DNA from: Minisyncoccota bacterium
Lineage (GTDB): Bacteria > Patescibacteriota > Minisyncoccia > Phycocordibacterales > Phycocordibacteraceae
DNA: 64,000 nucleotides
Assembly: GCA_041664265.1 (NCBI GenBank)
Contig: JBAYLD010000001.1
Location: 134,358 to 198,357, forward strand
Reading direction: 5' to 3'
The position numbers and the translations under genes were made by a program. Under the pieces are notes generated by a model. It did not search any database, was not told the DNA's origin, and was given only the letters and a program-made list of their open reading frames with translations. Positions 7,586 through 60,620 of this stretch are shown here, piece by piece (position 1 is the first letter of the stretch; every line of letters begins with the position of its first letter).

Positions 7586-8889
7586 TGTTGCAAAAGTGCG
7601 TTCAAAGAGCGCCCGGCAGAAGCGAGCGCCGCAGCGAGTGTCGAACGGCCGCTTATCACTCCTCCAATCATACTCGAGAAAACCACATCCGTGTCAGCAG
7701 GCAGTGGGGACAGCCATCCTTTTGCATAGAGGGCCTCGGCATAGGCAACCGCGGCCACTGGATCATCGGGCGCAACAGCGAGCCCATTTAACACGGTTGG
7801 CGCGAGCCCTGTCTCTGCGGCCGCAACAGCCTGCTCCTCTAGATTCGTGAGAAGCGCGGCGGCCTGATACGCTCCCGAAGCGTTTTTAGCGCCATTTGGG
7901 ATCATGAACGCATACACCAAGCCATACACACTCTTCGTCTCGGCAGTCGCCGGCTGCGGCAGAGGCGCGACACCGAAGGTGAGGTTCGGATTCGCCGCCG
8001 CGAAGAAACGTGCCTCAGAAGCATACCCGATATAGAGCGCGAGATCGCCTGCAAGAAATGCCTGTTGGGAGTCCGGCAAGGAGGCATTCCAGGTGTACGA
8101 GACTTTCGACGGATCGGCAAACTGCGTATAGAAGCCGAGCACCGCCTGTCCAACCGGCGCGCCGGCGCCGCCCGAAAGCTTCTCGCCTAAATCAGCAACG
8201 AGATCACCGCTGAATGAATATGAGGAGATTGGCGCGCCCGTTTGGAGGAAGAGTGTGGAGAGTATACCCCGCGCGTTGTGCACATTATCATAGGTGCCCA
8301 GTGCGATGAGTCCGCGCGTGATCTGCCGCGCAGGAGTGAGAACCGCAGTGCCCGGCACCAGGCCGGTCAACGCCTCCCAGGTCGCAGGCGGCCTCGCGAT
8401 GCCGTTTGAAGCGAGAAGGGAGCGATTTGAGAAGAGTACCAGCGGGTCGACAAGGAACGGTATGCCGTAGTAGCCGTCTGGAGCCGCGAAGAGCTCCCCC
8501 TCCCCAATGAAGGTGTTCGTAAAGGCGGCTGCGGAGAGGGTGCTGGACGGTATCGGCATAATGAACTTCGCGATTGCATGAAGCTCTTCCTGCGAAGCGA
8601 GCACGAGATCGGGTGCGGCTCCCGTCGCTATCGCCGCGGCGAGATCGTTCTGAAGCGTCGCAGAATCCTTTTGCACATACGATACGCTCTTAAGCGCCGT
8701 TGCGGACTTTGCGATTTCAACGAGAGCAGACTGCACACCCTCCTTCGGCAAGGTACCCCAGATAACGACCGCCCCGACCGCGTCTTCTTTGCTGCCATCA
8801 CTTGTGTATGTTGCGAAGACGAAGAGACCGATGAGCGCGGCGAGGCCGAACACGCCGAGTAAAACACCTTGGAAGAGAGAGATTTTCAT
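7582..8889 (-). CDS. ABC-transporter family-1 extracellular solute-binding protein (orphan)
   Basis: 435 aa. N-terminal TM anchor. VVIWGTLP, TGAAPDLVLASQEEL and YGIPFLVDPLVLFSNRSLL...PPATWEAL are typical of SBP_bac_1. No permease or ATPase nearby. Confidence 0.6.
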   Translation of the reverse strand: MKISLFQGVLLGVFGLAALIGLFVFATYTSDGSKEDAVGAVVIWGTLPKEGVQSALVEIAKSATALKSVSYVQKDSATLQNDLAAAIATGAAPDLVLASQEELHAIAKFIMPIPSSTLSAAAFTNTFIGEGELFAAPDGYYGIPFLVDPLVLFSNRSLLASNGIARPPATWEALTGLVPGTAVLTPARQITRGLIALGTYDNVHNARGILSTLFLQTGAPISSYSFSGDLVADLGEKLSGGAGAPVGQAVLGFYTQFADPSKVSYTWNASLPDSQQAFLAGDLALYIGYASEARFFAAANPNLTFGVAPLPQPATAETKSVYGLVYAFMIPNGAKNASGAYQAAALLTNLEEQAVAAAETGLAPTVLNGLAVAPDDPVAAVAYAEALYAKGWLSPLPADTDVVFSSMIGGVISGRSTLAAALASAGRSLNALLQQ

Positions 8890-8892
8890 AGA

Positions 8893-9432
8893 TTAAGGGG
8901 CAGTAAATAATATTCCATAATGATGCGGCCCCGCGCGGAATGATTTCACCTTATGGAAACCATTATTGATAAAAAGTTCCTCAGCCTCGTGCTCGGTCAC
9001 GATGTGCTCGGGTGAGGGGCCCATGCCGCCATAGCTGCCAGCCCAATCGATAAGCATGAGTTTGCCGCCCGGCTTCAGCACGCGCCGCACTTCCTCGAGG
9101 AGCCCGGGGCGATGCTCGATCTGGAAGAGCGTGTTCGCGAGTATGACGGCGTCGAGCGTCGCGTCACGCAGGTGCGTACCGCCTGACTTCTCGATATTGC
9201 CCCACACCGCGTCGATGACGCCGTGGTGCGCCGCGTGCATAGTGAGCTTCAAGTGCTTCAGCACATCCTCCTGCACATCAATCGCATACACCTTCCCACC
9301 GTTGCCTTCGACAATCGCGGCGGCCGCACGCGCATAGTGGCCGCTCCCGGTGCCGAAATCAGCAACCCTCATTCCCTCGCGGAGTCCGAGCTGAAGGACA
9401 GCATCTCTGGGAGAACTAAACTGCGCATTCAT
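8893..9432 (-). CDS. Class I SAM-dependent methyltransferase
   Basis: Start set at the internal Met (MNAQFSS...). The upstream part of the ORF-track frame (to 9729) is not protein-like. Motif I VADFGTGSGHY, motif LKPGGKLMLID. Confidence 0.65.
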   Translation of the reverse strand: MNAQFSSPRDAVLQLGLREGMRVADFGTGSGHYARAAAAIVEGNGGKVYAIDVQEDVLKHLKLTMHAAHHGVIDAVWGNIEKSGGTHLRDATLDAVILANTLFQIEHRPGLLEEVRRVLKPGGKLMLIDWAGSYGGMGPSPEHIVTEHEAEELFINNGFHKVKSFRAGPHHYGILFTAP

Positions 9433-9496
9433 GCATATAAAATACCACGTACGGCCCGCCGCGGACCGCACAATCAACATTCTCTTAAAGCAAACC

Positions 9497-10264
9497 TGTG
9501 GACACCGGGTGTCTACAAAAGATTTGCGAGTTAGTATGAGGAAATGGGGTACCGAGAAAACATGACGAACTCTTGTGTGCATGCATACAACCGTGGAGTA
9601 AAGAAAATGCCTATCTTCCGAGAAAAGAACGACCTGTTGCGCCTTTTTAATAGCCTGTACTACTTCAATACCACACAAACGATGCCAGAGAACTGGATCC
9701 GCGATGTTATTAGAGAAGGTGGAATGCAAAAATTAGTGTGGCCATCTATATGGGAACCACGCGAACCGCTAGTTTCAATTCTAGCATGCACTATAATGCC
9801 AAACCATTTCCATTTACTACTTAAAGAGAAAATCGCGGGCGGTATAAGTAAATTTATGCACCGCGTCAGTATGGGATATTCAAAATTCATCAACGAGAAA
9901 TATACCGAGAGTGGTAGTCTCTTCCAAGGCGCTTACAAGGCAAGGTGTATCGATGACGATGCAGATTTAAAAAATCTTGTTGCATATATCATGATAAAGA
10001 ATTCCTTCGAAACATACCCGGGAGGATTGGAGAAAGCGTACAAAGAATTTGACCAGGCTTACGACTACGCGCTTGACTACCCGTTAACCAGTCTTGCCGA
10101 ATACACAGGGAAAAGAAAGCCGGCACTATTAGATCACAATCTCCTACGAGAGTTATTTGAAGAACCAAAATCATTCAAGGAATTCGCTCGCGATTGTATG
10201 CAAAATCGCTTCGAGCAAATGAATGATTATAGTTTCGAGAAAGTGTAGACACCGGGTGTCTACA
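9497..10264 (+). mobile_element. IS200/IS605-family (RAYT-like) element 1, bounded by palindromic hairpins
   Basis: Left hairpin tgtggacaccgggtgtctaca (9497-9517) and right perfect palindrome tgtagacaccgggtgtctaca (10244-10264) flank a Y1 HuH transposase gene. Confidence 0.6.
9544..10248 (+). CDS. Y1 HuH transposase, IS200-like / REP-associated tyrosine transposase-like
   Basis: 234 aa. HuH motif MPNHFHLLL. Downstream Tyr region SGSLFQGAYKARCIDDDADLKNLVAYIMIKN resembles the RAYT WQRRYxxHxIRDE region. Confidence 0.65.
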   Translation: MGYRENMTNSCVHAYNRGVKKMPIFREKNDLLRLFNSLYYFNTTQTMPENWIRDVIREGGMQKLVWPSIWEPREPLVSILACTIMPNHFHLLLKEKIAGGISKFMHRVSMGYSKFINEKYTESGSLFQGAYKARCIDDDADLKNLVAYIMIKNSFETYPGGLEKAYKEFDQAYDYALDYPLTSLAEYTGKRKPALLDHNLLRELFEEPKSFKEFARDCMQNRFEQMNDYSFEKV

Positions 10265-10465
10265 CCTCACAAATATCCTTATCTTATACCGACCGGATGT
10301 GGATAAGAATATTGAGGGAAATAAAAAAGCCGCGAGAGACGGGAGTAATTGCCTTATCGCTTTCCTCCACTAACAACGTCCTCGCGGCTACTTCAGTGTC
10401 CACCAGGAGACTTACTCCCGGCAAAGAGCCGGGTCCGGCCGAACCCGAACTCTATTTACAAAATA

Positions 10466-12952
10466 TCACAGCGCGACCATCGAGGCGATAGAGTCGCCCT
10501 CGCGCATTTTCATGATACGGACACCCTGGGTCGCACGCGAGAGGAGCGAGATCTCGGCAACGGAAGTGCGGATCACCTGCCCTTTCTTAGAGACAACGAC
10601 GAGCTCTTCTTCAGCAAGATCGCCGACGCAGACACGCGCGCCGATGATCTCGCCTGTCTTCGGCGTCACCTCGGCCGTCTTGATGCCCGAGCCGCCGCGA
10701 CCCTGAACCTTGTATTCAGAAATCTTGGTGCGCTTGCCGTATCCCTTGCTCATAATGACCAAGAGAGAAGCGTCACGGGCCGCTGCAGAAACAACCTCCG
10801 CCGAGACCACCCGATCGCCCTTCCGGACAGCCATGCCGCGCACACCGCCAGCCGTACGGCCCATCTCGCGAACGTCTTCTGTATCAAATCGAATCGACTG
10901 CCCCTTTGCGGTAACGATAGAGACCGTGTCGCCCTCGGCCGCATGATGCGCTGAGACAAGCTTGTCGCCCTTTTTCAAATTAATCGCGATAATGCCCGAG
11001 CGGCGCACGTCGGAGAACGACTTCGCTGCGACCCGCTTCACCACCCCCTGCTCGGTCACAAAGACGACCGACGACGCATCGAGCGCCGCACCCTTGGGCA
11101 CCGGCAGTATCGAGGTAACCTTTTCATCGCCCGCGAGCGCGAGGAAGTTCATAATGCTCTTGCCCTTGGTTGCGCGCTTGCCCTCCGGGATCTCGTACAT
11201 TTTGAGCTGGTACGCCTTGCCGAAGTCGGTGAAGAAGAGTAGGTCGCTGTGCGCATTCGTCACCAAGAAGTGCGTTACGATGTCTTCTTCTTTGGTCGCG
11301 ATGTCCACCACGCCGACGCCGCCGCGCTTCTGCCGTCTGTATTCGTTCGGATTCGTTCGCTTCACATAGCCGCCCTGGGTGAGGAGCAGCATCGACTCTT
11401 CGTCTGGTACGAGATCCTCCGCAGAGATGTTCTGCACGCCGCCCTTCACGATTCTCGTGCGACGATCATCGCCATATTTCTCCGCGAGCCCTTCAAGCTC
11501 ACTCTTCACCACGGCGAGGATCTTTTTGGGCGATGAGAGAATCTCCTTCAGCTTCTTGATCAGCGCTTGCACTTCGGTGAGCTCGTCTTCGAGCTTCTTG
11601 CGTTCCAGCCCGGCGAGCTTGGAGAGGCGCATTTCGAGAATCGCTGCCGCTTGCAGCACCGAAAAGCCAAATTTCTTCTGGAGCGCGAGACTCGCCGAAG
11701 GCACATCGGCCGCTTTCTTAATTATCGCGATAACCTCGTCGATATGATCGAGCGCTTTACAGAGACCGAGGAGTATATGTTCGCGCGCTTCAGCCTGCCG
11801 CAAATCAAATTCGGTGCGACGCTTCACCACTTCTTGGCGATGGTGTACGAAATGCTCCAGCATTCCCGAGAGCGAGAGCATTTCTGGTACGCCATCAACC
11901 AACGCGAGCATGTTGTAGTGGAACGTGCTCTCGAGCTCGGTGTGCTTGTATAAAGCGTTCAAAACCGCCTGCGGATGCGCGGTGCCCTTAAGCTCAACCA
12001 CGACGCGGATATCGGTCGTAGATTCATCACGCAAGTCGCGGATACCCTCAAGCTTTTTCTCCTGCACCAGCTCGGCGATGCGTGCGATGAGCTCGCTCTT
12101 GTTTACGCGGTATGGGATGGAGGTGATGATGATGTGCGTATCCTTCTTCCCGTCATCCACAATCTCTGCCTCGCCGCGCACCACCACTGGTCCCTTGCCG
12201 CTGCCATAGACATGCTTGATATCTGTTTGATTAAACGCGACACCGCCCAAGGGGAAATCGGGACCCTTCACAAACTGGAGGAGGTCATCGGTCGTTGCGC
12301 CCGGATTGTCTATAGAATGGATAGCAGCAGCGACGACTTCACGAAGGTTGTGCGGCGGAATGTTGGTCGCCATCCCCACCGCGATGCCGAGCGTGCCGTT
12401 CAAGAGCAAATTCGGCAGTGCAGAAGGGAGCACACTCGGCTCGTCTCGCGTCGCGTCATAATTCGGGTTCCACGCGACGGTCTCCTTCTCGAGATCGGTA
12501 AGGAGCGCCTCGCCGATGCGCGACATCTTTGCTTCGGTATAACGCATCGCCGCTGGCGAGTCGCCGTCGATAGAGCCGAAGTTGCCCTGCCCTAACACAA
12601 GCGGGTAGCGATAGGAGAATTCCTGCGCCATCTTCGCCATAGAGTCATACACCGCAACATCACCGTGCGGATGATATTTGCCGAGCACATCGCCGACCAC
12701 GAGCGCCGATTTGCGGAACTTCGAGCTAGGACCGAGACCGAGGCCCTGCATCGCGTAGAGGATGCGGCGGTGTACCGGCTTCAACCCGTCGCGCACGTCT
12801 GGCAAAGCGCGGCTCGTGATGACCGACATCGCGTAGTCGAGATACGAGGTGCGCATCTCGGCCACGATCGGCTGATCAATGACATTCGCGGCGACTGATT
12901 GCCCCAAAGGGGCAACCGCGTTTCTATCCTTGTCATCTTTACTGCGCGCCAT
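10466..12952 (-). CDS. gyrA: DNA gyrase subunit A
   Basis: 828 aa. [33 protein letters not shown] and other GyrA N-terminal signatures. Long-hairpin terminator downstream at about 10320-10390. Confidence 0.95.
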
Positions 12953-16738: not shown

Positions 16739-17914
16739 ATGCAGGGTCATAGCGAGCCTTATCGAACTATGATGCGCGAGGTCATTCCCGGAGAAGAACT
16801 CTTGAACAAATCGCACGCCATCGGCCAGTACTATGGTTTTGTCCCGCTCGCAACGCTCACCGGGCGAACACGCAGCATTGCGCGAGTGAAAACAAGCAAC
16901 CCCAGTGCCCCCGTCGACCTCGGAGAGGATCCTATCGCCAACACGGTAGCGAGCTTTTTAAAACAATGTCAGAACATAAACTGTGTACCTTCTCCGCGAC
17001 AACCGACCTTCATCTGGCACACGAACATCGCTCCAGGCCGCCCTGTGCATAAGAAAATGACGGTGCAGTTCCATGCGCTCGGCACAGATCGTGCAATCGC
17101 CGATGCGGTCGTTATCCGTGCACTCCTCGCACTCTCGCGCGACCTCTTCCGTACCGAGACTACCGTCCGTATTAATTCGATGGGCGACAAAGAGACCCGG
17201 GCGCGCTACGCGCGTGAACTTGGCGTCTTCTTTAAAAAACGTGCAAACACGCTCCCTGAAGAATGCCTCGAATGCGCCCGGCGCGATGTGCTTGAAGCAG
17301 CCGAGCTTGCGCTCGCGCGCGGCTGGGTGGATGACGTCCCTTCTCCGACCGACCATCTCTCGGACGCGAGCCGTAAGCGCTTCGAGGATTTGCTTGAATA
17401 TCTCGAGATGACCGAGACGCCCTATGAGCTCGCACGCACCCTGATCAGCCGCGGCAGCGCTTGGAGCGACATATGCTTCGAGATTATGGCGGGTGATCGG
17501 CGCGTCGCGTGGGGTTCGCGCTACACCGACCTCACGCGCCACTTCTTCCCCACTGCGCCCTTTAGCGCGACTGGTGCCGTACTCCAAGTAGCTGGCGAGG
17601 GCGCGATCGTCGAAAAAATACCATCGGTACGAGTGCGGTTCTCGTTCGTCCATATTGGTGATGAGGCGAAGAGGATATCTATTCGCCTGGCCGAGGACTT
17701 CAAGAAAGCGCGCATCCCCCTTACCCAAGACATCGGCGTCGAATCGTTGGCCGAGCAACTCCATCTCGCCGAACGGCGCGAGAGCCCCTACCTCCTCATC
17801 ATGGGCCGCAAAGAGGCACTCGAGGGCTCGGCGATCCTCCGCAACCGCCAAACGCAAGAAGAGACTATCCTCCCCCTCGCCGGCCTCATCGACCGCCTGA
17901 AGGCGTTTGCTTAA
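16739..17914 (+). CDS. Histidyl-tRNA synthetase-like class II aaRS paralog with degenerate catalytic motifs
   Basis: 391 aa. QFHALGTD (compare HisRS QFHQIGxE), WGSRYTDL (compare GGRYD), and a C-terminal HGTP anticodon-binding-like domain (PYLLIMGRKEALEGSAILRNRQTQEE). Motif 1 and motif 2 residues are poorly conserved. Confidence 0.45.
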   Translation: MQGHSEPYRTMMREVIPGEELLNKSHAIGQYYGFVPLATLTGRTRSIARVKTSNPSAPVDLGEDPIANTVASFLKQCQNINCVPSPRQPTFIWHTNIAPGRPVHKKMTVQFHALGTDRAIADAVVIRALLALSRDLFRTETTVRINSMGDKETRARYARELGVFFKKRANTLPEECLECARRDVLEAAELALARGWVDDVPSPTDHLSDASRKRFEDLLEYLEMTETPYELARTLISRGSAWSDICFEIMAGDRRVAWGSRYTDLTRHFFPTAPFSATGAVLQVAGEGAIVEKIPSVRVRFSFVHIGDEAKRISIRLAEDFKKARIPLTQDIGVESLAEQLHLAERRESPYLLIMGRKEALEGSAILRNRQTQEETILPLAGLIDRLKAFA

Positions 17915-18040
17915 CAGAACTGCGAGTCTGACTCGCAGTTCTCGTGACTTGGACATCCGATGTCCAATTTGGTACCCTACTCTCCGGACGCTATTTGCTA
18001 CAGAACTGCAGTTAAACCTAAAAGAAAGAGGAGGTGCATC

Positions 18041-30395: not shown

Positions 30396-31255
30396 GTGAA
30401 AAGGAGATTGTAGTGCTCTACCATGGCGGCTGCCCCGACGGCTTCAGCGGCGCCTATGCCGCGTGGAAGAAATTCGGCGATACAGCAGAATATATCCCAT
30501 TAAAACTACATGCCCGGCCGGTCCCTGAAGGACTCGCGGGCAGGCGGTTATTTTTCATTGATTTCACCTATCCGCAGGACATCATGGACGAGATCGTGAG
30601 GACCGCCGCATCGGTCACCGTTCTCGACCATCATCGAGGCATACAAGAAGTGGTTGAACGCATGCCCGAACATGTCTTTGACGAGAAGCGGTCCGGTGCG
30701 ACCATCGCGTGGAGCTACTTCCATCCGGACACTCCTGTTCCCGTTCTGCTGAGATACGTCGAGGATGGCGATCGGTACGTCTTCCAGCTCCCGGATTCTC
30801 GCGCAGTGCTCGCCTATGCCTATACACAAAAATTTACGTTTGAAGCATGGGACCAGTTGGTACAAGAGTTTGAAGATGAAAAGACGCGTGCGACATTGCT
30901 GGAGAAAGGAAAAGTGTATGCAGAGCATTTTGCCATTCTGGTCGGGCAGATCGCCAACAAAGCAAAGCTTGTGTCGTTTGAAGGCTTCACGTGCCCCCTC
31001 GTCTCTGCTGCGGACATGTTCACTTCTGATGTGGGGAATCGGCTCGCACAAGAGCGCCCGCCGCTCGGCATCGTGGTCAACTTCCGCGAGGATGTCCTCC
31101 ATGTGTCGCTCCGGAGCACTCCCGACCTGGATGTCTCGATCATCGCGCAGAAGTATGGCGGCAATGGCCACCCGCAAGCCGCCGCATTCAATGTCGCCTG
31201 GGGTTGCCCGCTCCCTTGGACCGTTTTAGAGGAACATGAGAATCCTTGCCGTTGA
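30392..31255 (+). CDS. DHH-family phosphoesterase (NrnA-like)
   Basis: Start at MSEKEIVVLYHGGCPDGF, ATGA overlap with rlmB. DHH motif VLDHHRG. Confidence 0.55.
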   Translation: MSEKEIVVLYHGGCPDGFSGAYAAWKKFGDTAEYIPLKLHARPVPEGLAGRRLFFIDFTYPQDIMDEIVRTAASVTVLDHHRGIQEVVERMPEHVFDEKRSGATIAWSYFHPDTPVPVLLRYVEDGDRYVFQLPDSRAVLAYAYTQKFTFEAWDQLVQEFEDEKTRATLLEKGKVYAEHFAILVGQIANKAKLVSFEGFTCPLVSAADMFTSDVGNRLAQERPPLGIVVNFREDVLHVSLRSTPDLDVSIIAQKYGGNGHPQAAAFNVAWGCPLPWTVLEEHENPCR

Positions 31256-32534
31256 AACCTCTTGTGACGAGACTGCCATCGCGATTCTTGAATGCAGTGG
31301 CGACCCCTCGGCAGGACTCGGGACAAGTGAAAACGCGACCTGTACCGTGCTCGGGAACGCGCTCCTCTCGCAGATAGACCTGCACAAGCAGTATGGCGGC
31401 GTCTTCCCCGCGCTCGCCAAACGTGAGCATGCGAAGAATCTCGTGCCGATCCTCGAAGCGGCACTTGAGGAGGCGGAGTGTGTTCGGAAAGGAAAACAGA
31501 TGATATCTGATGGGCTGTTGGCCGAAGTTGAGGCTATGTTGGCGCGTGAGCCCGGCCTTACCGAAGCCTTTTTCGCTTTTGTCTCTGAATGCGAACCGCC
31601 AGCGATCGACGCGATTGCGGTTACCGCGGGTCCCGGACTTGAGCCCGCGCTCTGGGTCGGCATCAACTTCGCGAAGGCGCTCGCTCTCGTATGGCAGAAG
31701 CCGCTCGTCGCAGTGAATCATATGGAGGGACATATTCTCGCTGCCATCGCGCAAAGAACACAAGGAGACACCTCGCCTTCGCGAGGAGTCACCTTGCGCA
31801 AATCCGAAACAGAAAAATTAGAAATTAAAAATGTACAATTTCCAATACTCGCACTGCTGATATCCGGCGGACATACCCAACTTGTGCTGATGAAAAAATG
31901 GCTTGAGTATGAGCTCGTCGGCGAGACGCGCGACGATGCCGTCGGCGAGGCCTTCGATAAGGTCGCGCGCATGCTCGCGCTCCCCTATCCGGGCGGGCCA
32001 GAGATCTCGCGCCTCGCTGAAGAAGTCAGACAGGAATGTCAGGACATCGGAAGTCCCACATCAGATGTGGGACTTCCGATGTCCCACACATGGGCGAAAC
32101 TGCCGCGGCCGATGATTAACGAAAATAGCTGCGACTTCTCATTTGCAGGATTGAAAACCGCGGTGTTGAACCTTTTGAAAAAGGTCCCCGATATCCGCGA
32201 CGAAGACAAGAAGCATATCGCCCACGAGTTCGAAAACGCCGTCACTGACGTATTGTGGAAGAAGACTGCGCGTGCGCTCAAAGAGACGGGAGCCAAGACG
32301 CTCGTCATCGGCGGCGGCGTCTCGGCGAATACTCATATCAAACGCACCTTCCGAGAAAACATCGCTCAAGAATTCGGGAATATCGATCTTCGCATACCGA
32401 AGGCGAGCCTCTCGACCGACAACGCCATCATGATCGGGCTCGCCGGCTACTATCGCGCCTTACGCGAAGAAGTTGTCCAACCTTCCGACGAACTCAAAGC
32501 AAACGGTAATCTCTCTCTCGCAAAAAAGCCCTGA
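31236..32534 (+). CDS. tsaD: tRNA N6-adenosine threonylcarbamoyltransferase TsaD (Kae1/Gcp), carrying in-frame insertions
   Basis: 432 aa. MRILAVETSCDETAIAIL, HMEGHILAA, VIGGGVSANTHIKR. It is about 90 aa longer than typical TsaD. The insertions coincide with palindromic repeats at 31763-31794 and 32042-32084. Confidence 0.85.
   Translation: MRILAVETSCDETAIAILECSGDPSAGLGTSENATCTVLGNALLSQIDLHKQYGGVFPALAKREHAKNLVPILEAALEEAECVRKGKQMISDGLLAEVEAMLAREPGLTEAFFAFVSECEPPAIDAIAVTAGPGLEPALWVGINFAKALALVWQKPLVAVNHMEGHILAAIAQRTQGDTSPSRGVTLRKSETEKLEIKNVQFPILALLISGGHTQLVLMKKWLEYELVGETRDDAVGEAFDKVARMLALPYPGGPEISRLAEEVRQECQDIGSPTSDVGLPMSHTWAKLPRPMINENSCDFSFAGLKTAVLNLLKKVPDIRDEDKKHIAHEFENAVTDVLWKKTARALKETGAKTLVIGGGVSANTHIKRTFRENIAQEFGNIDLRIPKASLSTDNAIMIGLAGYYRALREEVVQPSDELKANGNLSLAKKP
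32042..32084. repeat. 43-nt perfect palindrome inside the tsaD coding sequence
   Basis: ggacatcggaagtcccacatc a gatgtgggacttccgatgtcc. Both strands encode DIGSPTSDVGLPMS. Confidence 0.8.
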
Positions 32535-47420: not shown

Positions 47421-48231
47421 CCGTAAGGTGTCCGTAAGGTGTCACCTTACGGAATCAATAAAACGCTAGAAACCGTAAGGTGTCACCTTACGGAACATGC
47501 TACTATTACCGAATATGACAAAGAGAGACGTCCCGTTTGCTGTCGGGGAGTGGTACCACTGTTATAATCGTGGCATTGAGAAGCGTATCGTATTTGAAGA
47601 TATTCGAGATTATCACCGCTTCCTTGAGCTCCTTTATTTGGCGAATGATGAGTTTCCTCTCCGGCGTGACGATATCGGCCTATATAAATTTGAAGAGATA
47701 TTAAAGGTTCCTCGCGGCAAGAAATTAGTCGCTATTGGAGCATTCTGCTTGATGCCAAACCACTTCCACTTAGTTTTGAAAGAGGTTGTGGATGGAGGCA
47801 TTACCGCATTTATGCGGAAAATCGGGACGGCATATGCTCTGTATTTTAATGCACGGCACGGACGGACGGGAAACCTGTTCCTCAAGCCGTTTCGATCCCG
47901 CCATGTATCTACCGATCGCTACTTTCAGCACCTTATCAATTATGTGCACTGTAACCCAGCGGCGCTCTCTGAACCCGAGTGGAAAACCAGCCATGTTGTG
48001 GACCCTCAGTTCTTGGGAGAACAAATCGCCGCATACCCGTATTCAAGTCTTGGTACCCATGCGGGCGCACACACGCCGACCAGCGCTATCCTAGACGCGG
48101 AGGTGTTCTCTCTAGCGCGTACGGTTCAAATACAAAAGATGCTACAGGAAGCGCGACAGTATTATGCTGATTCCGACCTTTCCCTTCCGTAAGGTGTCAC
48201 CTTACATCTGCTGTAAGGTGACACCTTACGG
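47421..48231 (+). mobile_element. IS200/IS605-family (RAYT-like) element 2, with hairpin doublets at both ends
   Basis: Perfect palindrome ccgtaaggtgtcaccttacgg at 47432-47452 and 47473-47493 (left). Related hairpins at 48187-48205 and 48213-48231 (right). These differ from the element 1 hairpins. Confidence 0.65.
47497..48192 (+). CDS. Y1 HuH transposase, IS200-like / RAYT-like (paralog of 9544..10248)
   Basis: 231 aa. YHCYNRG, HuH MPNHFHLVL, Tyr region GNLFLKPFRSRHVSTDRYFQHLINYVHCNP. Confidence 0.65.
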   Translation: MLLLPNMTKRDVPFAVGEWYHCYNRGIEKRIVFEDIRDYHRFLELLYLANDEFPLRRDDIGLYKFEEILKVPRGKKLVAIGAFCLMPNHFHLVLKEVVDGGITAFMRKIGTAYALYFNARHGRTGNLFLKPFRSRHVSTDRYFQHLINYVHCNPAALSEPEWKTSHVVDPQFLGEQIAAYPYSSLGTHAGAHTPTSAILDAEVFSLARTVQIQKMLQEARQYYADSDLSLP

Positions 48232-48248
48232 AATGTGGTATAATAAGC

Positions 48249-48592
48249 GCGGACCGGGCTAAGCGATCGCTGGCGGCGTAACGCGCCGACTAGAGGAAAG
48301 TCCGAACATGCGCTCGCTGCAAGGTGAGCAAGAAAGGTAGCGGGTAACGCCCGTCGTCCGTGAGGATAGAGGTGACCACAGTGACGCCAAAACCGAGAGG
48401 TGAAGGGTTCCCTTCGGGGAATAATCTCGCCGCAAGACGAGGGTGCAACGAACAAATCCTTACCCGCATGCAAGGCCGTGTCCCGAGTCCGCCAACTGGT
48501 GGACGAGGGAAGTGCCGCTTGATCCTGAGAGCAATCGAAGGGCTAGATAAATGATCGCTCACGACAGAATTCGGCTTATCGGCCCGGTCCAC
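48249..48592 (+). ncRNA. rnpB: RNase P RNA, bacterial type A
   Basis: P1 pairing: 5' GGACCGGGC with 3' GCCCGGTCC. Conserved GAGGAAAGTCCGAACA (P4 5' strand), GGTAACGCCCG, and 3' region GGCTAGATAAATGATCGCTCACGACAGAATTCGGCTTATCGG, which closely matches E. coli M1 RNA GCCUAGAUGAAUGACUGUCCACGACAGAACCCGGCUUAUCGG. Confidence 0.85.
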
Positions 48593-48597
48593 ATACA

Positions 48598-48633: not shown

Positions 48634-49623
48634 CTACTTACTGACCGGAATTAATTTTGAAAGTTTATGCGCATTACCATGCCTCAACATACCGCGATAC
48701 GATGAGACGTTTCCCTCGCTCGGGTTCCCACTCACCGCTTTCAGCATCCGCCGCTTCGTGCTCGTGCGCAAAACGCGATGATCGGAGAAATGCACCCAGC
48801 CGAGGAAATCAACGCCCGAGGCGAATGTTTTGATGAAAACCTTGTCCGGATGGAGATCAAGCTTTAGCCGATCACGCAAGAATGCTCCTATAGGCTGGAG
48901 GACGTTACACAGATATGATCGGTCACGCGAAAGAATAACAAAATCATCGGAATAGCGGATATAATGGCGTGCTTTTAATTTGTGCTTCACGAACTGATCA
49001 AACTCATTCATATAGATATTCACGAGAAGTTGGCTCGTAAGATTCCCAAGCGGCAAACCCTTACCAAGACCGGTTGAATGAAAACTCTCAATTATGTTTT
49101 GCAGCAAGGCTATAATTCGTTCATCAGGAATATGCCTCCGTAAGATTTCGAGCAATATTTGCTGATCAATGGATGCAAAAAACTTTCTGATGTCACACTT
49201 AAGCACCCATGCGGTCCTCGCGTGGTTTTTACTCTCCTGACATGCATATCGCCTGAAGGCATTCATTGCGCGATGAGTCCCCTTCTCTAGCCGACAAGAG
49301 TATGAGTCGGTGATAAACGTGCTGTTGAAAACCGGATACAAAATTCTGTAGATAGCATGGTGCACCAACCGGTCGCGTACGCTCGCTTTATGTATGTCGC
49401 GCGGTTTTGGATCGCTGATCTTGAAATGGGTATACGAGCCATGTCGGTATGCACCTGAGACAAGATCCGAATGGAGTGTAAAAATATTCCGTACGAGATC
49501 GTATTCGAACGCCTGCACGTCTTTCTTTTTCTGCTTGCCGTGTAAGAACTCTTTCCATGCGTCGAGCAGGTTGTTGGTAGAAATGATATTGTCGTAGGAA
49601 TGGGAGTCACCGATTCTACTCAT
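48634..49623 (-). CDS. Diversity-generating retroelement reverse transcriptase
   Basis: The ORF runs to 49749; the likely start is MSRIGDSH at 49623. RT motifs LKCDIRKFFASID and YIRYSDDFVIL. The DGR-diagnostic motif GLPLGNLTSQLLVNIYMNEFDQFVKH ([ILV]GxxxSQ) is close to Bordetella bRT. No maturase or endonuclease domain. Confidence 0.85.
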   Translation of the reverse strand: MSRIGDSHSYDNIISTNNLLDAWKEFLHGKQKKKDVQAFEYDLVRNIFTLHSDLVSGAYRHGSYTHFKISDPKPRDIHKASVRDRLVHHAIYRILYPVFNSTFITDSYSCRLEKGTHRAMNAFRRYACQESKNHARTAWVLKCDIRKFFASIDQQILLEILRRHIPDERIIALLQNIIESFHSTGLGKGLPLGNLTSQLLVNIYMNEFDQFVKHKLKARHYIRYSDDFVILSRDRSYLCNVLQPIGAFLRDRLKLDLHPDKVFIKTFASGVDFLGWVHFSDHRVLRTSTKRRMLKAVSGNPSEGNVSSYRGMLRHGNAHKLSKLIPVSK

Positions 49624-50031
49624 ACCCTTGAACGTACCCCCCCCCGGACGATTCCGCAAGAAAAACTCGTGGCGGTCGTGTTGAAACTGAAAGAGACATA
49701 CCTTGCGTGGCAGATGGCGCTCCCACATGTCGCAAAAGCTCGACGGCAAACAATAGCCGCGCGCATTGACGGGGCACTTCTCGACACACTTGAATACGCA
49801 TTTCGAGCCGAATATCTCTCGGGACTGCTGAAAATTAAAGCAATCGAGGTATCAATCGAGAGACTCGATGTAGCCAAATTCTTTTTGCTGGTCGGATGGG
49901 AAAGCGATGCCATTACGAACGATCAGCATCTCCGTATAACGGGGCTTCTCATTGAGGCGAGCAAAATGCTCGTTGGTTGGAAGGCATATCTTGAAAAGAA
50001 AACTCCCGCGGATGAGGGCGGGAGAAAGTAA
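49600..50031 (+). CDS. Avd-like (accessory variability determinant, 23S rRNA IVS four-helix-bundle family) protein
   Basis: 143 aa from the ATG; an alternative GTG start at 49669 gives 120 aa. Basic helical protein. LKETYLAWQMALPHVAKARR and C-terminal ITGLLIEASKMLVGWKAYL resemble Avd motifs. It is divergent from the RT gene and antisense to the TR-RT spacer. Confidence 0.5.
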   Translation: MGVTDSTHTLERTPPRTIPQEKLVAVVLKLKETYLAWQMALPHVAKARRQTIAARIDGALLDTLEYAFRAEYLSGLLKIKAIEVSIERLDVAKFFLLVGWESDAITNDQHLRITGLLIEASKMLVGWKAYLEKKTPADEGGRK

Positions 50032-57738: not shown

Positions 57739-59925
57739 ATGAACATGGAAGACACTCTCGAGAAGCACTTCACGCGGCTTAAGCCGGAGCAGAAGCGGGC
57801 GCTGCATAAGCTAAAAGTTCGCACGATACGCGACCTGCTCTATCACTTCCCCGCTCGCTATGAATCAGCCGGCCAGACAGTGACTATTGCCGGTATTTCA
57901 GCGGGTGCCGAGGTGACGCTTTACGGCACCATCAGGAAGCCCGATGTGCGGAAGACGTGGAAGAGCCGCCGCCCGATCGCCGAGGCGTGGCTCGAGGACG
58001 CTTCGGGCAAGATCAAGATGATGTGGTTCTCTCAGCCCTACATCGCCAAGACGCTCCATGACGGTATGGTGGTGAAGGTGAGCGGGAAGGTAGCGGGAGA
58101 AGGCACCAAGATCTATTTGGCAAATCCAGCGATTGATAAGTCACCTATCGCGCCTGATGCGGCAATTGACTCGCTCTTCACGAGCCGAGGAGACACCTCG
58201 CAGCGAGGAGTCACCTCAGCTCTGTATCCGATTTATCCCGAGAGCCAAGGTGTCTCCTCGCTCTGGTTCTTGCACGCGGTGAAGAAAATATTTGAGACGG
58301 GAGTGCACGAAGGCATTGAGGACCCAATCCCGCCTGAGATCCTTGCACGCTACAATTTGCCATCGCTCTCTGCCGCACTCGTGTTTATACACGCACCGAA
58401 GAAGCTTTCTGATGCCGCGGCGGCGCGCAAGCGCTTCGCCTTTGAAGAAATCTTCGCGCTTCAAATACGAATGCAACAAAATCGGCAATGTCGCAGTGAG
58501 GAGAGAGCCCTGGCAGTAAACGTGGACATAGCGGCGAGACGCCGCGTCAACGACTTCATCGCCTCGTTCCCCTTCCCCGCCACGGCCGCACAGACGCAGG
58601 CGATCGAAGCAATCGTCGCCGACTTCGAGAAATCAAACCCCATGTTGCGACTCCTCGAGGGCGACGTGGGCAGCGGTAAAACTGCCGTCGCCGCCGCGAC
58701 CGCTTATTTGGTGGCGACATCACTACCTCGCGGGCGGATCGCCGGCACACTCCAAGTCGCGTATCTCTGCCCCACCGAGATCCTCGCCAAACAGCACTTC
58801 TCTACCTTCGTCTCATATTTTAAAGACCACCCCATCCCAATCGGCCTTATCACCGGGAGCGAATGCCGCAAGTTCCCTTCTCGCGTGCGGTATGAAGAAT
58901 CCGCCAAGCTCTCGAAGGCGGCGTTTAAGAAGATGGTGGCGAATGGCGAGATCCCGATCGTCATCGGCACGCACGCGCTCATCGAGAAGTCGCTCGCCTT
59001 TAAATATTTTGCCTATGCGATCGTCGACGAACAGCATCGCTTCGGCACGGCGCACCGACAGAAGCTCGTTATGAAAGGTGATGTGGCCCCTCATTTACTC
59101 TCTATGACCGCGACGCCGATCCCGCGCACGCTCGCGCTCGCGCTCTATGGCGACCTTGATCTCACACTCCTCGACGAGATGCCGGTGGGTAGGAAAAAGG
59201 TCATTACCGAGGTACTGGGCTCAAAAGAGCGCGAACGCGCCTACGAGCGCGTTCGCGCCGAACTCGCCCTCGGCCACCAGGCGTATGTGATCTGCCCCCG
59301 AATAGACGAGCCTGACCCGGCCAAAGAGCTCGCGCTCCAAACCAAATCGGTAAAGGCCGAAGCGGCACGGCTCCAAAAAGAGGTCTTCCCTGAAGCAGTT
59401 ATAGACATCCTACACAGCAAGATGACGCCAAAAGAGAAGGAGGACGTGATGAAAGAATTTGAGAATGGAAAAATAAATATCCTCGTTGCAACGTCTGTAG
59501 TAGAAGTGGGTGTGAACGTCGCGAACGCGACCGTGATCCTTATTGAGGGCGCCGAACGATTCGGGCTCGCCCAGCTGCATCAGCTCCGCGGGCGAGTGAT
59601 CCGCTCGATCCATCAGTCCTACTGCTTCGCCCTGCCCGAGTCGAGCGGCGAGACCACGCGCGAGCGAATGAAAGCGTTTATGCAGGCGAAAAACGGCTTC
59701 GAGCTCGCCGAATATGACCTCGCGCTCCGTGGTGCGGGCGAGCTCGCGGGCGGCAAGCAGTGGGGTGTCTCTGACATCGCGATGGAGGCGTTAAAGAATA
59801 TTAAATTGGTCGAAGCCGCTCGCACCGAGGCGGCGACCCTCGTCGCCGCCGATCCCGACCTTAAAAACCACCCCGCCCTCTCCGCTCGCGCCGCCACGGC
59901 GGATAAAGAGATGCATTTAGAGTAA
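57739..59925 (+). CDS. recG: ATP-dependent DNA helicase RecG, carrying an in-frame palindromic-repeat insertion
   Basis: Start set at MNMEDTL. Walker A GDVGSGKTAV, DEQHRFG, wedge/OB N-terminal domain. The 79-nt inverted-repeat element at 58185-58263 encodes SRGDTSQRGVTSALYPIYPESQGVSS. Confidence 0.85.
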   Translation: MNMEDTLEKHFTRLKPEQKRALHKLKVRTIRDLLYHFPARYESAGQTVTIAGISAGAEVTLYGTIRKPDVRKTWKSRRPIAEAWLEDASGKIKMMWFSQPYIAKTLHDGMVVKVSGKVAGEGTKIYLANPAIDKSPIAPDAAIDSLFTSRGDTSQRGVTSALYPIYPESQGVSSLWFLHAVKKIFETGVHEGIEDPIPPEILARYNLPSLSAALVFIHAPKKLSDAAAARKRFAFEEIFALQIRMQQNRQCRSEERALAVNVDIAARRRVNDFIASFPFPATAAQTQAIEAIVADFEKSNPMLRLLEGDVGSGKTAVAAATAYLVATSLPRGRIAGTLQVAYLCPTEILAKQHFSTFVSYFKDHPIPIGLITGSECRKFPSRVRYEESAKLSKAAFKKMVANGEIPIVIGTHALIEKSLAFKYFAYAIVDEQHRFGTAHRQKLVMKGDVAPHLLSMTATPIPRTLALALYGDLDLTLLDEMPVGRKKVITEVLGSKERERAYERVRAELALGHQAYVICPRIDEPDPAKELALQTKSVKAEAARLQKEVFPEAVIDILHSKMTPKEKEDVMKEFENGKINILVATSVVEVGVNVANATVILIEGAERFGLAQLHQLRGRVIRSIHQSYCFALPESSGETTRERMKAFMQAKNGFELAEYDLALRGAGELAGGKQWGVSDIAMEALKNIKLVEAARTEAATLVAADPDLKNHPALSARAATADKEMHLE
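58185..58263. repeat. Intragenic palindromic repeat in recG (GGAGACACCTCGC family)
   Basis: ccgaggagacacctcgcagcgaggagtcacctc...ccaaggtgtctcctcgctc. 12-14 bp terminal inverted repeats. The core is shared with tsaD 31763-31794 (aggagacacctcgccttcgcgaggagtcacct). Confidence 0.6.
59869..59918 (+). repeat. 50-bp perfect direct repeat, copy 1 (3' end of recG)
   Basis: caccccgccctctccgctcgcgccgccacggcggataaagagatgcattt. Identical copy at 60464-60513. Confidence 0.9.
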
Positions 59926-59949: not shown

Positions 59950-60411
59950 ATGAAAAACTATCCGAAAATAAATATAGGCATTGGTGGCGTTATCCTTCGC
60001 GGCAAGTCAAAAATCCTTCTGACTAAACGGAAAACTGACCCGTCGGTTTGGACAATTCCAAGCGGCTATATGGAGAAAGATGAAAATATATTTGAAACAA
60101 TCATAAGAGAGGCGAAGGAGGAAACAAATATTGTCATAAAACCACGAGGTGTTGTTGGAGTACGGCAGCGAATTACCGAAAAAGAAGGAAATAACTTTTG
60201 GATACTTACAATCGCTGATTACAAATCTGGGAAAGTCACGCCGGACAATTCTGAAATTTTAGAAACGCAATTCATACCATTATCAAAGGCTTTACAAGAA
60301 AAAATAACACCTGTGACCAAATACATACTAAAAATGCTATTAAAAAATAAACTGCAGATTCTTCTGCCGCAAAAAAGTCTTGATCAGAAACAGTATAGGC
60401 TTTTTTCTTAG
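59950..60411 (+). CDS. Nudix hydrolase (on an AT-rich inserted cassette)
   Basis: 153 aa. Nudix box GYMEKDENIFETIIREAKEETNI. Local base composition is clearly more AT-rich than the surroundings. Confidence 0.75.
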   Translation: MKNYPKINIGIGGVILRGKSKILLTKRKTDPSVWTIPSGYMEKDENIFETIIREAKEETNIVIKPRGVVGVRQRITEKEGNNFWILTIADYKSGKVTPDNSEILETQFIPLSKALQEKITPVTKYILKMLLKNKLQILLPQKSLDQKQYRLFS

Positions 60412-60463: not shown

Positions 60464-60513
60464 CACCCCGCCCTCTCCGCTCGCGCCGCCACGGCGGATA
60501 AAGAGATGCATTT
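60464..60513 (+). repeat. 50-bp perfect direct repeat, copy 2 (recreates a recG-like 3' end, ...EMHLE stop)
   Basis: Identical to 59869-59918, followed by ggaataa. Confidence 0.9.
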
Positions 60514-60545
60514 GGAATAAATATGGACTTACGATGTCCATAACT

Positions 60546-60620
60546 TGGTACGCCCAGAGGGACTCGAACCCCCAACCAATCGCGTATAAGGCGACTGCTC
60601 TACCATTGAGCTATGGGCGT
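60546..60620 (-). tRNA. tRNA-Ile (anticodon TAT), CCA encoded
   Basis: Reverse complement ACGCCCATAGCTCAATGGTAGAGCAGTCGCCTTATACGCGATTGGTTGGGGGTTCGAGTCCCTCTGGGCGTACCA. Anticodon loop CTTATAC. A1-U72 acceptor pair. Confidence 0.75.

Follow-up and report, generated by a model that had tools for sequence, protein, structure and literature searches.

A single-copy RAYT-like Y1 HUH gene between two cognate palindromes: a probable REPtron/TIRtron-like unit of a Patescibacteria chromosome

RAYT genes and their repetitive extragenic palindromes (REPs) are a textbook case of a domesticated transposase accompanied by its own non-autonomous repeats. To our knowledge, their function is not known, and most descriptions concern Proteobacteria, Cyanobacteria and Bacteroidetes. 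Here, we analysed a 64-kb stretch of the chromosome of a Minisyncoccota (Patescibacteria) bacterium, hereafter the window, and in particular a gene for a single-tyrosine (Y1) HUH enzyme that is bracketed by two short palindromes, hereafter element 1. The obtained results make it probable that element 1 is a unit of the REPtron/TIRtron-like kind, located on a Patescibacteria (Paceibacteria/Kaiserbacteria-type) chromosome and consisting of a single-copy RAYT-like Y1 HUH nuclease/ligase gene and two cognate 21-nt palindromes. It behaves as a long-term dispensable chromosomal resident and not as a hopping insertion sequence (IS).

REPtrons are defined as RAYT (TnpAREP) genes flanked by cognate REPs (PMC2817692, PMC3333891, PMC6006769 class 2, PMC8266576). 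A low-copy, vertically inherited Y1 enzyme that co-evolves with its own palindromes is the concept on which both REPtrons and TIRtrons are built (PMC2817692, PMC3733652, PMC6006769). Element 1 and its family resemble REPtrons in that the Y1 HUH fold is nearest to that of the Escherichia coli RAYT, each palindrome type goes with one low-copy gene, which it flanks, paralogs of the same genome carry distinct palindromes, protein and palindrome co-evolve, and inheritance is mostly vertical. Some members carry palindromes inside the gene, in the manner of the REP insertions known for RAYT genes of subclass 2.4 (PMC6006769), and perfect-palindrome REPs are known substrates that the cognate TnpAREP processes in vitro (PMC8266576). 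By comparison with Table 1 of PMC6006769, the protein most resembles those of the TIRtrons (TIRYT, TnpAY1 subclass 2.1; PMC3733652, PMC6006769), which have ∼238 aa, NH[YF]H, FQ for WQ/WE and a C-terminal extension with a conserved serine; the element 1 protein has 234 aa, NHFH, LFQG, an invariant S183 and a helical region at residues 161–229. As in TIRtrons, the gene lies between terminal repeats that are sometimes self-complementary, with few or no further genomic copies. Unlike in TIRtrons, the GGGGWSAS motif is lacking, Pfam detects no Bac_DnaA_C or helix-turn-helix (HTH) tail, and the repeats of element 1 are short odd-centred perfect palindromes (GACAC-N3-GTGTC) and not long terminal inverted repeats (TIRs). 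Each feature, namely flanking cognate palindromes, self-complementary TIRs, internal REP copies and low dispersal, has a precedent elsewhere, and the family is possibly a new TnpAY1 subclass.

The element 1 gene is located at 9544..10248 on the forward strand and encodes a protein of 234 aa, with NHFHLLL at residues 87–93, the HUH residues H88-F-H90 and a candidate catalytic tyrosine, Y148, within YIMIKNS. The source annotation begins the gene at M7; the start at 9544 was preferred because the N-terminus MGYRE is conserved, and the spacing of a predicted leaderless −10 box supports it too. Pfam Y1_Tnp (PF01797), the check proposed when the element was first read from its sequence, scored 37.7 bits against a cutoff of 23, with only profile positions 41–119 aligned, which is the behaviour described by Quentin et al. 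for RAYT-like class 2 proteins (PMC6006769). The same profile gave 24.7 bits for a second Y1 gene of the window (the paralog) and 28.9 bits for the ortholog at locus L121. Among the NCBIfam models, REP_Tyr_transpos ranked first (E 4e-9), while transpos_IS200 reached E 0.18. No HTH or Bac_DnaA_C domain was detected in the protein with Pfam, and PHROGs and PADLOC returned no match for element 1.

An alignment of 20 diverse homologs showed that H13, R17, G18, D30, H88, H90, Y148, N153 and S183 are invariant; the sequence-only reading had noted the HuH motif and a downstream catalytic-tyrosine region in a 234-aa open reading frame (ORF). The HuH-to-Y distance of 60 aa falls inside the reported range of 58–67 aa (PMC6006769), and the tyrosine motif reads YIMIKNS in element 1, Y-MVKNP in its relatives and canonical YVHCNP in the paralog. 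The AlphaFold (AF2) model derived from this alignment had a predicted local distance difference test score (pLDDT) of 90.3 and placed Y148 on a helix spanning residues 139–155, with the C-terminal part (161–229) also helical. A Foldseek comparison of the model with solved structures gave 4er8_A, the E. coli RAYT with a REP hairpin, as the best match (E 6.4e-5), followed by 2a6m, 2xm3 and 2f4f; these next-ranked matches are the IS608, ISDra2 and IS200 TnpA structures. The assignment of the element 1 protein to the RAYT-like branch of the Y1 HUH enzymes is therefore supported by Pfam, by the NCBIfam ranking and by the best fold match.

The gene is bracketed by two 21-nt copies of one palindrome in direct orientation, with the centre CCGGG on the + strand. 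The 5′ copy, TGTGGACACCGGGTGTCTACA at 9497..9517 (+), contains one G.T stem mismatch that is kept in the orthologs; 26 nt separate the end of this copy from the ATG. The 3′ copy, TGTAGACACCGGGTGTCTACA at 10244..10264 (+), is perfect, its arms reach 10243–10265, and the TAG stop codon of the gene falls within it. When folded as single-stranded DNA (ssDNA), both sites form a stem of 9–10 bp with a 3-nt loop, at −7.4 kcal/mol (z −2.7) for the 5′ copy and −9.3 kcal/mol (z −4.2) for the 3′ copy, and the bottom strand behaves similarly. The 5′ copy carries GTGG in place of GTAG in 4/4 orthologous loci, with the complementary base also altered in two of them; because the same variant recurs in all four, its imperfection is not random decay. 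The window and L168 agree at 21/21 positions in both copies although the spacer around them is not alignable, the distance from the 5′ palindrome to the ATG is 26 nt throughout, and a stem change in L121 (GGGTGGACACC...GGTGTCCACCC) is compensated on the opposite arm (TGTAG..CTACA vs GGTGG..CCACC). The sequence-only reading had given a near-perfect and a perfect hairpin at exactly these positions and taken them for the gene's own structures, which agrees with their retention at orthologous loci where the Y1 domain is present. The possibility that they are ordinary terminators unrelated to the gene was rejected on the basis of the locus-specific co-variation and of the control ORFs described below, and an Rfam search of positions 9400–10500 detected no non-coding RNA even at E up to 1.

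The pairing of gene and palindrome extends across the family. Searched with a profile, 1.84 billion cluster representatives yielded 786 clusters at E ≤ 1e-30, and metagenome-assembled genomes of Patescibacteria hold numerous homologs of ∼231 aa. We sampled 80 family loci from GTDB species representatives, in which a word of at least 14 nt was common to both flanks for 64/79 family genes but only 6/342 control ORFs, one of these six being itself a family gene. A strict search for odd-centred palindromes resulted in 48 cognate pairs; the 5′ copy ended a median of 21.5 nt before the ATG, while the 3′ copy started a median of +1 nt from the stop codon and overlapped it in 22 pairs. Every locus has its own palindrome, with an outer stem that differs from locus to locus. 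The inner 13 nt follow the family-wide consensus GAGGTY-N-RACCTC, position −5 being A in 90% of cases, and no position beyond ±12 of the palindrome centre is conserved. The core follows the protein clade, being GACAC-N3-GTGTC for element 1, AAGG[CT]G-T-C[GA]CCTT for the paralog and AAGGAC-N-GTCCTT for another clade; the palindromes of the two window paralogs are GACACCGGGTGTC and AAGGTGTCACCTT. Recognition of a hairpin near its loop predicts this pattern, in which the inner core is conserved and the outer stem varies freely but with compensation.

Element 1 is flanked by a block of methyltransferase (MT), solute-binding protein and pilin genes on one side and by gyrA, with its hairpin and T-run terminator, on the other, as had been proposed from the sequence. 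Its closest homologs, from four other species, occupy the same MT-Y1-gyrA position at L166 (76% amino acid identity), L167 (73%), L168 and L169 (71%) and L121 (69%). Among these syntenic orthologs, the proportion of differing synonymous sites (pS) was 0.69–0.87, which is saturated, that of nonsynonymous sites (pN) was 0.13–0.24, and the ratio of the corresponding rates (dN/dS) was ∼0.05–0.13 where computable, so the gene is old and evolves under purifying selection. Proteins identical across 24 and 14 metagenome contigs always had the same neighbours. Element 1 is single-copy in the window, and paralogs within one genome are only ∼30% identical.

These observations bear on the alternative that element 1 is an autonomous IS200/IS605-type insertion sequence, in which the hairpins would mark the left and right termini of a 768-bp unit that would, rarely, excise and reinsert as ssDNA. 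We regard this as unlikely. It shares with IS200, IS608 and ISDra2 the superfamily, the fold, subterminal hairpins at both ends and, with IS200, a unit of ∼0.7–0.8 kb, and it would account for the IS-like tight bracketing in which the 3′ hairpin overlaps the stop codon, for the tandem pair of Y1 copies in L041 and for the Y1 gene of L003, which is close to that of L121 yet lies in another context (pal-[213-aa ORF]-pal-Y1-pal) and hints at some movement. A further hint is a 43-nt terminator-like segment (10310–10351): by BLAST, the side of the Y1 gene on which it lies differs between the window and L121; a global alignment of the two spacers was uninformative. An unchanged position while synonymous sites became saturated, the single copy and the distant paralogs speak against transposition. 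The element also differs from subclass 1.1 of IS200/IS605, which is characterised by DH[VI]H, Y[IV]ENQ, ∼150 aa, near-identical copies, distinct left-end (LE) and right-end (RE) hairpins and cleavage/target tetranucleotides: element 1 has NHFH and not DH[VI]H, Y----N and not Y---Q, and 234 aa (PMC6006769), and it scored 12 bits against a cutoff of 55 with NF033573 (NCBIfam transpos_IS200). No tnpB accompanies it, and no close homolog was found in phage and plasmid collections, which gave only distant matches of 26–36% identity.

The orientation of the centre base, direct in 24 of the 48 pairs and inverted in the other 24, argues against strand-specific ends such as the LE/RE of IS608, the same palindrome being present at both ends. 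A target-site duplication was also considered as the source of the two copies and was ruled out by the same even split. Base composition can be read in more than one way. The G+C content of the Y1 ORF is below that of its surroundings in 75/78 loci (mean −7 points), as would fit an insertion sequence; it follows that of the host, however (r = 0.85), for which a long stay with relaxed composition is a better explanation than recent import. Of the initial description as an IS200/IS605-family (RAYT-like) element, the superfamily, the RAYT-like branch and the hairpins thus stand, whereas the notion of an active IS is not supported, given the absent signatures, the single copy and the same MT-gyrA position in five genomes.

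The gyrA-MT spacer itself is a site of turnover. Its left part contains a GC-rich hairpin followed by a T-run (9448..9472, − strand), which is terminator-like, conserved in relatives and the sole structure remaining in the empty spacer of L172. The adjoining CAATCAACA (9471..9479) forms the conserved left edge of a hypervariable spot, directly after which lineage-specific DNA begins in every relative examined. The contents found there, with L121, L170, L172 and L174 among the loci, are nothing, a 100-aa ORF, a PaaX-like gene with a 64-aa ORF, Y1 alone, GNAT + Y1, a 92-aa ORF + Y1, or Y1 with a PNPOx-like ORF. L172 and L173 have a bare 88-bp gyrA-MT spacer without a palindrome, L174, which shares its sample with the window, has the 100-aa ORF in place of Y1, and L170 and L171, which are closest by gyrA (93–94%), have a PaaX_M-like gene and the 64-aa ORF instead. 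Relative to the empty L172 site the indel measures ∼960 bp; its ends are not at the palindromes and no footprint was observed. This would not be expected of an insertion sequence, whereas the presence of the unit in five relatives and its absence from three equally close ones would fit one. In the gyrA tree, Y1-positive genomes are basal and interleaved with negatives, and Y1 distances agree with the tree. The simplest history is ancestral presence followed by at least three losses or replacements; a less simple one would be repeated gain. Because the unit is syntenic with saturated synonymous sites, yet its site is empty or refilled in equally close relatives, it is ancient yet dispensable and located in an intergenic hot spot.

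The right part of the spacer contains a second imperfect palindrome, ATATCCTTATC-N17-GATAAGAATAT (10265..10318), which is unrelated to the Y1 palindrome and occurs once, beside the Y1 3′ hairpin. It is followed by the gyrA terminator (∼10323..10389, − strand), a long hairpin with a U-run, whose 3′ part is overlapped by the 43-nt stretch mentioned above. At the same gyrA-MT spot in L170 (6490–7430), two copies of the ATATCCTTATC...GATAAGAATAT palindrome bracket the PaaX_M-like gene; this palindrome may be the operator of the PaaX_M-like regulator or the end of another cassette. Such arrangements raise the question of whether the spacer is an integron-like cassette site at which the Y1 enzyme acts as a recombinase that captures palindrome-bounded cassettes. 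The differing cargo of each relative after the same CAATCAACA, the pal-[213-aa ORF]-pal-Y1-pal order of L003, a 270-nt segment of L121 that is bracketed by a second palindrome and the bracketed gene of L170 would fit this idea. We nevertheless consider it very improbable, as the Y1 palindrome does not enclose the extra genes beside Y1 in L167 and L168, cargo occupies the site even in genomes without Y1, and the repeats around other cargo have no sequence relationship to that palindrome.

The position of the 5′ palindrome suggests a link with transcription. A −10-like box, TAGTAT, is located at 9532..9537 (+), six bases before the ATG, and this is a family-wide feature: most members (loci L003–L082) have a TATAAT-like box at −12..−7 from the ATG, often with a preceding TG (TGnTATAAT-like). 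The box position predicts a leaderless mRNA. Since the box lies at a fixed distance, the 5′ palindrome occupies the −35 position, which suggests that occupancy of the palindrome may control transcription of element 1. A scan with a simple consensus found no promoter at the element 1 start.

This arrangement can also be read as the main role of the palindromes, which would then be regulatory double-stranded DNA, a promoter operator and a 3′ terminator or stabiliser, bound by a dimer, with catalytic targets, if any, elsewhere. Besides the fixed 26-nt spacing and the −35 position of a conserved leaderless promoter, the perfect two-fold symmetry with a random centre base fits dimer binding, and the same core with A/T-run flanks stands at gene ends in another contig of the candidate phyla radiation (CPR), where it resembles a bidirectional terminator. 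This possibility is, in our view, a poor one. No T-run lies downstream of the 3′ copy of the window, the nearest solved relatives bind ssDNA hairpins, Pfam finds no HTH domain, and the reading leaves unexplained the in-frame copies at two hot spots and the copies located kilobases away, both described below.

The contig in question is a low-GC, CPR-like one, L139 (also L162), in which the palindrome CCCTGTGGACACCGGGTGTCCACAGGG with A/T-run flanks occurs twice (6405–6437 and 7735–7767), 1330 bp apart, at gene ends. The copies follow greA and a NUDIX + HAD pair and have the look of a reused bidirectional terminator; the 15-kb locus contains no Y1 gene.

Several observations weigh against the preferred assignment of element 1 to a REPtron/TIRtron-like unit. 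The REP_Tyr_transpos score of 36.5 bits is far under the NCBIfam equivalog cutoff of 80, and a sequence profile search of the PDB retrieved no RAYT and only two chance-level AriB matches (E ∼0.3), the family being therefore remote in sequence. The tyrosine motif of element 1 (Y-IMIK-N) is one residue longer than the class-2 Y---NP. Dispersal of the palindrome, the defining feature of REPs and one that the sequence-only reading had raised, was not seen: the 21-mer with up to 3 mismatches has no third site in the 64-kb window (100 shuffles gave 0 matches), and the 13-nt core has no further copy there either. No external GTAG-type guide or cleavage motif is conserved across the family; GTGG/GTAG lies within the outer stem, in the element 1 clade only, as compared with the 5′ GT[AG]G tag that stands beside the hairpin in REPs. 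Three further points would also fit an occasionally mobile unit, namely a bracketing much tighter than in REPtrons (the 3′ copy overlaps the stop codon), the G+C content of the element 1 ORF (41.7% vs 54.1% for the window), and the absence of Y1 from the three equally close relatives. A scan of a metagenome collection gave 63 palindrome matches, of which only 6 adjoin Y1 genes and whose number is, by estimate, close to chance expectation; the source sample is outside this collection, so the scan is uninformative on dispersal in the source genome.

In a separate set of contigs with ∼63% G+C, many of them labelled human gut, a 31-nt palindrome, TGAATCGTAGACACCSGGTGTCTACGATTCA, is dispersed at several copies in each contig. 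These palindromes form a REP-like family that is tagged with GTAG and has the core of the window palindrome. Perfect copies were found in L105, L107, L108, L110, L115, L116, L122, L123, L133, L135–L137, L140, L142, L143, L145, L148, L160 and L163, and variants in L127, L129, L149, L156 and L157.

For element 1 as a REPtron/TIRtron-like unit, a mechanism can be proposed by analogy with the E. coli RAYT. The protein would bind its palindromes as hairpins extruded on ssDNA, as that RAYT does with REP, and recognition would operate through the conserved inner core, GAGGTY-N-RACCTC family-wide and GACAC-N3-GTGTC in the element 1 clade. Cutting and rejoining of DNA at the palindromes is predicted to proceed via Y148 and an HUH-bound metal. 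Copying or gene conversion by the enzyme could keep the copies around each gene identical, and in other family members the same activity may seed further copies close by, within the gene and at distances of a few kb. Binding to the 5′ copy would probably also autoregulate transcription.

Extra copies of this kind are found in the family. Cognate palindrome copies farther from the gene numbered 18 in 346 kb of DNA flanking the family loci, and extra copies beside the gene also occur. At 15 loci, among them L011, L030, L032, L034, L035, L038, L041, L045, L048, L049, L064, L066, L069 and L072, the cognate palindrome lies in frame inside the gene, with hot spots at codons ∼55–80 and ∼156–164. The sequence of the internal copies varies by species in step with the flanking copies. 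All copies at a given locus are identical, in the outer stem too and with the internal copies included. Pairing alone does not account for this, which suggests copying or conversion among them, plausibly by the enzyme. A more far-reaching reading, which we put forward tentatively and as a rather doubtful one, is that this ∼800-cluster Y1 family runs an active palindrome copy-and-homogenise system across Patescibacteria, with the same palindrome kept at the gene ends and at fixed in-frame ORF sites and occasionally written into neighbouring spacers and even essential genes (tsaD, 32042–32084). If true, ultra-small genomes would possess a REP-like mobile-palindrome system by which proteins are reshaped, and turnover at gyrA-MT and similar intergenic hot spots may also be driven by it.

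The second Y1 gene of the window is located at 47497..48192 (+) and encodes 231 aa with YVHCNP, 30% identical to element 1 by tblastn of the window. Its 21-nt palindrome, CCGTAAGGTGTCACCTTACGG, differs from that of element 1; two copies lie upstream (47431..47493, +), the second of which abuts the ATG, and an inverted doublet lies downstream (48185..48233, +), which is REPIN-like, folds at −25.6 kcal/mol and contains the TAA stop in its first copy. The window thus holds two paralogs of the same architecture, each with its own palindrome, and neither gene contains an internal copy. Directly past the downstream doublet is the RNase P RNA (48251–48594), on which a 371-aa reverse-transcriptase ORF (48634–49749, −; Pfam RVT_1, 80.9 bits) converges from beyond the second Y1 element.

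In total, the window contains 7 odd-centred perfect palindromes of this general type, as compared with 0–1 in shuffled sequences. Two adjacent orphans, AGAACTGCGAGTCTGACTCGCAGTTCT (17916–17942) and TTGGACATCCGATGTCCAA (17949–17967), stand right after the stop codon of a HisRS-like ORF (16739..17914), with no Y1 gene nearby; the second resembles the palindrome that brackets the 270-nt segment in L121. A 43-nt perfect palindrome at 32042–32084 lies in frame within tsaD (31236..32534), where it encodes the peptide DIGSPTSDVGLPMS, and its outer arms, GGACATC/GATGTCC, match the orphan at 17949. In 60 CPR TsaD homologs, the segment between LAEE.R and LPRPM in which it lies is hypervariable in both length and sequence, and the segment is missing from a few of them. 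Elsewhere in the window, a 57-nt direct repeat (96% identical; 59869–59925 and 60464–60520) brackets a NUDIX-domain ORF (59950..60411), adjoined by a tRNA gene (60549–60620, −).

Full-text literature searches yielded no relevant paper on RAYT/REPIN or IS200-palindrome systems in CPR, Patescibacteria, Parcubacteria or Saccharibacteria, and the classification of Quentin et al. does not mention CPR phyla (PMC6006769). The analysis presented here indicates that the logic of one enzyme with one palindrome, co-evolving as a pair, is widespread in CPR bacteria with ∼1-Mb genomes. For annotation, it calls for caution: such CPR genes should be neither named "IS200 transposases" nor counted as active insertion sequences. 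The unit is minimal, comprising a gene and two palindromes, and its copies are few enough for each of them to be tracked. It can, therefore, serve as a compact comparative model for the questions of how enzyme and hairpin specificity co-evolve, whether such an enzyme regulates itself and whether a palindrome spreads by copying.

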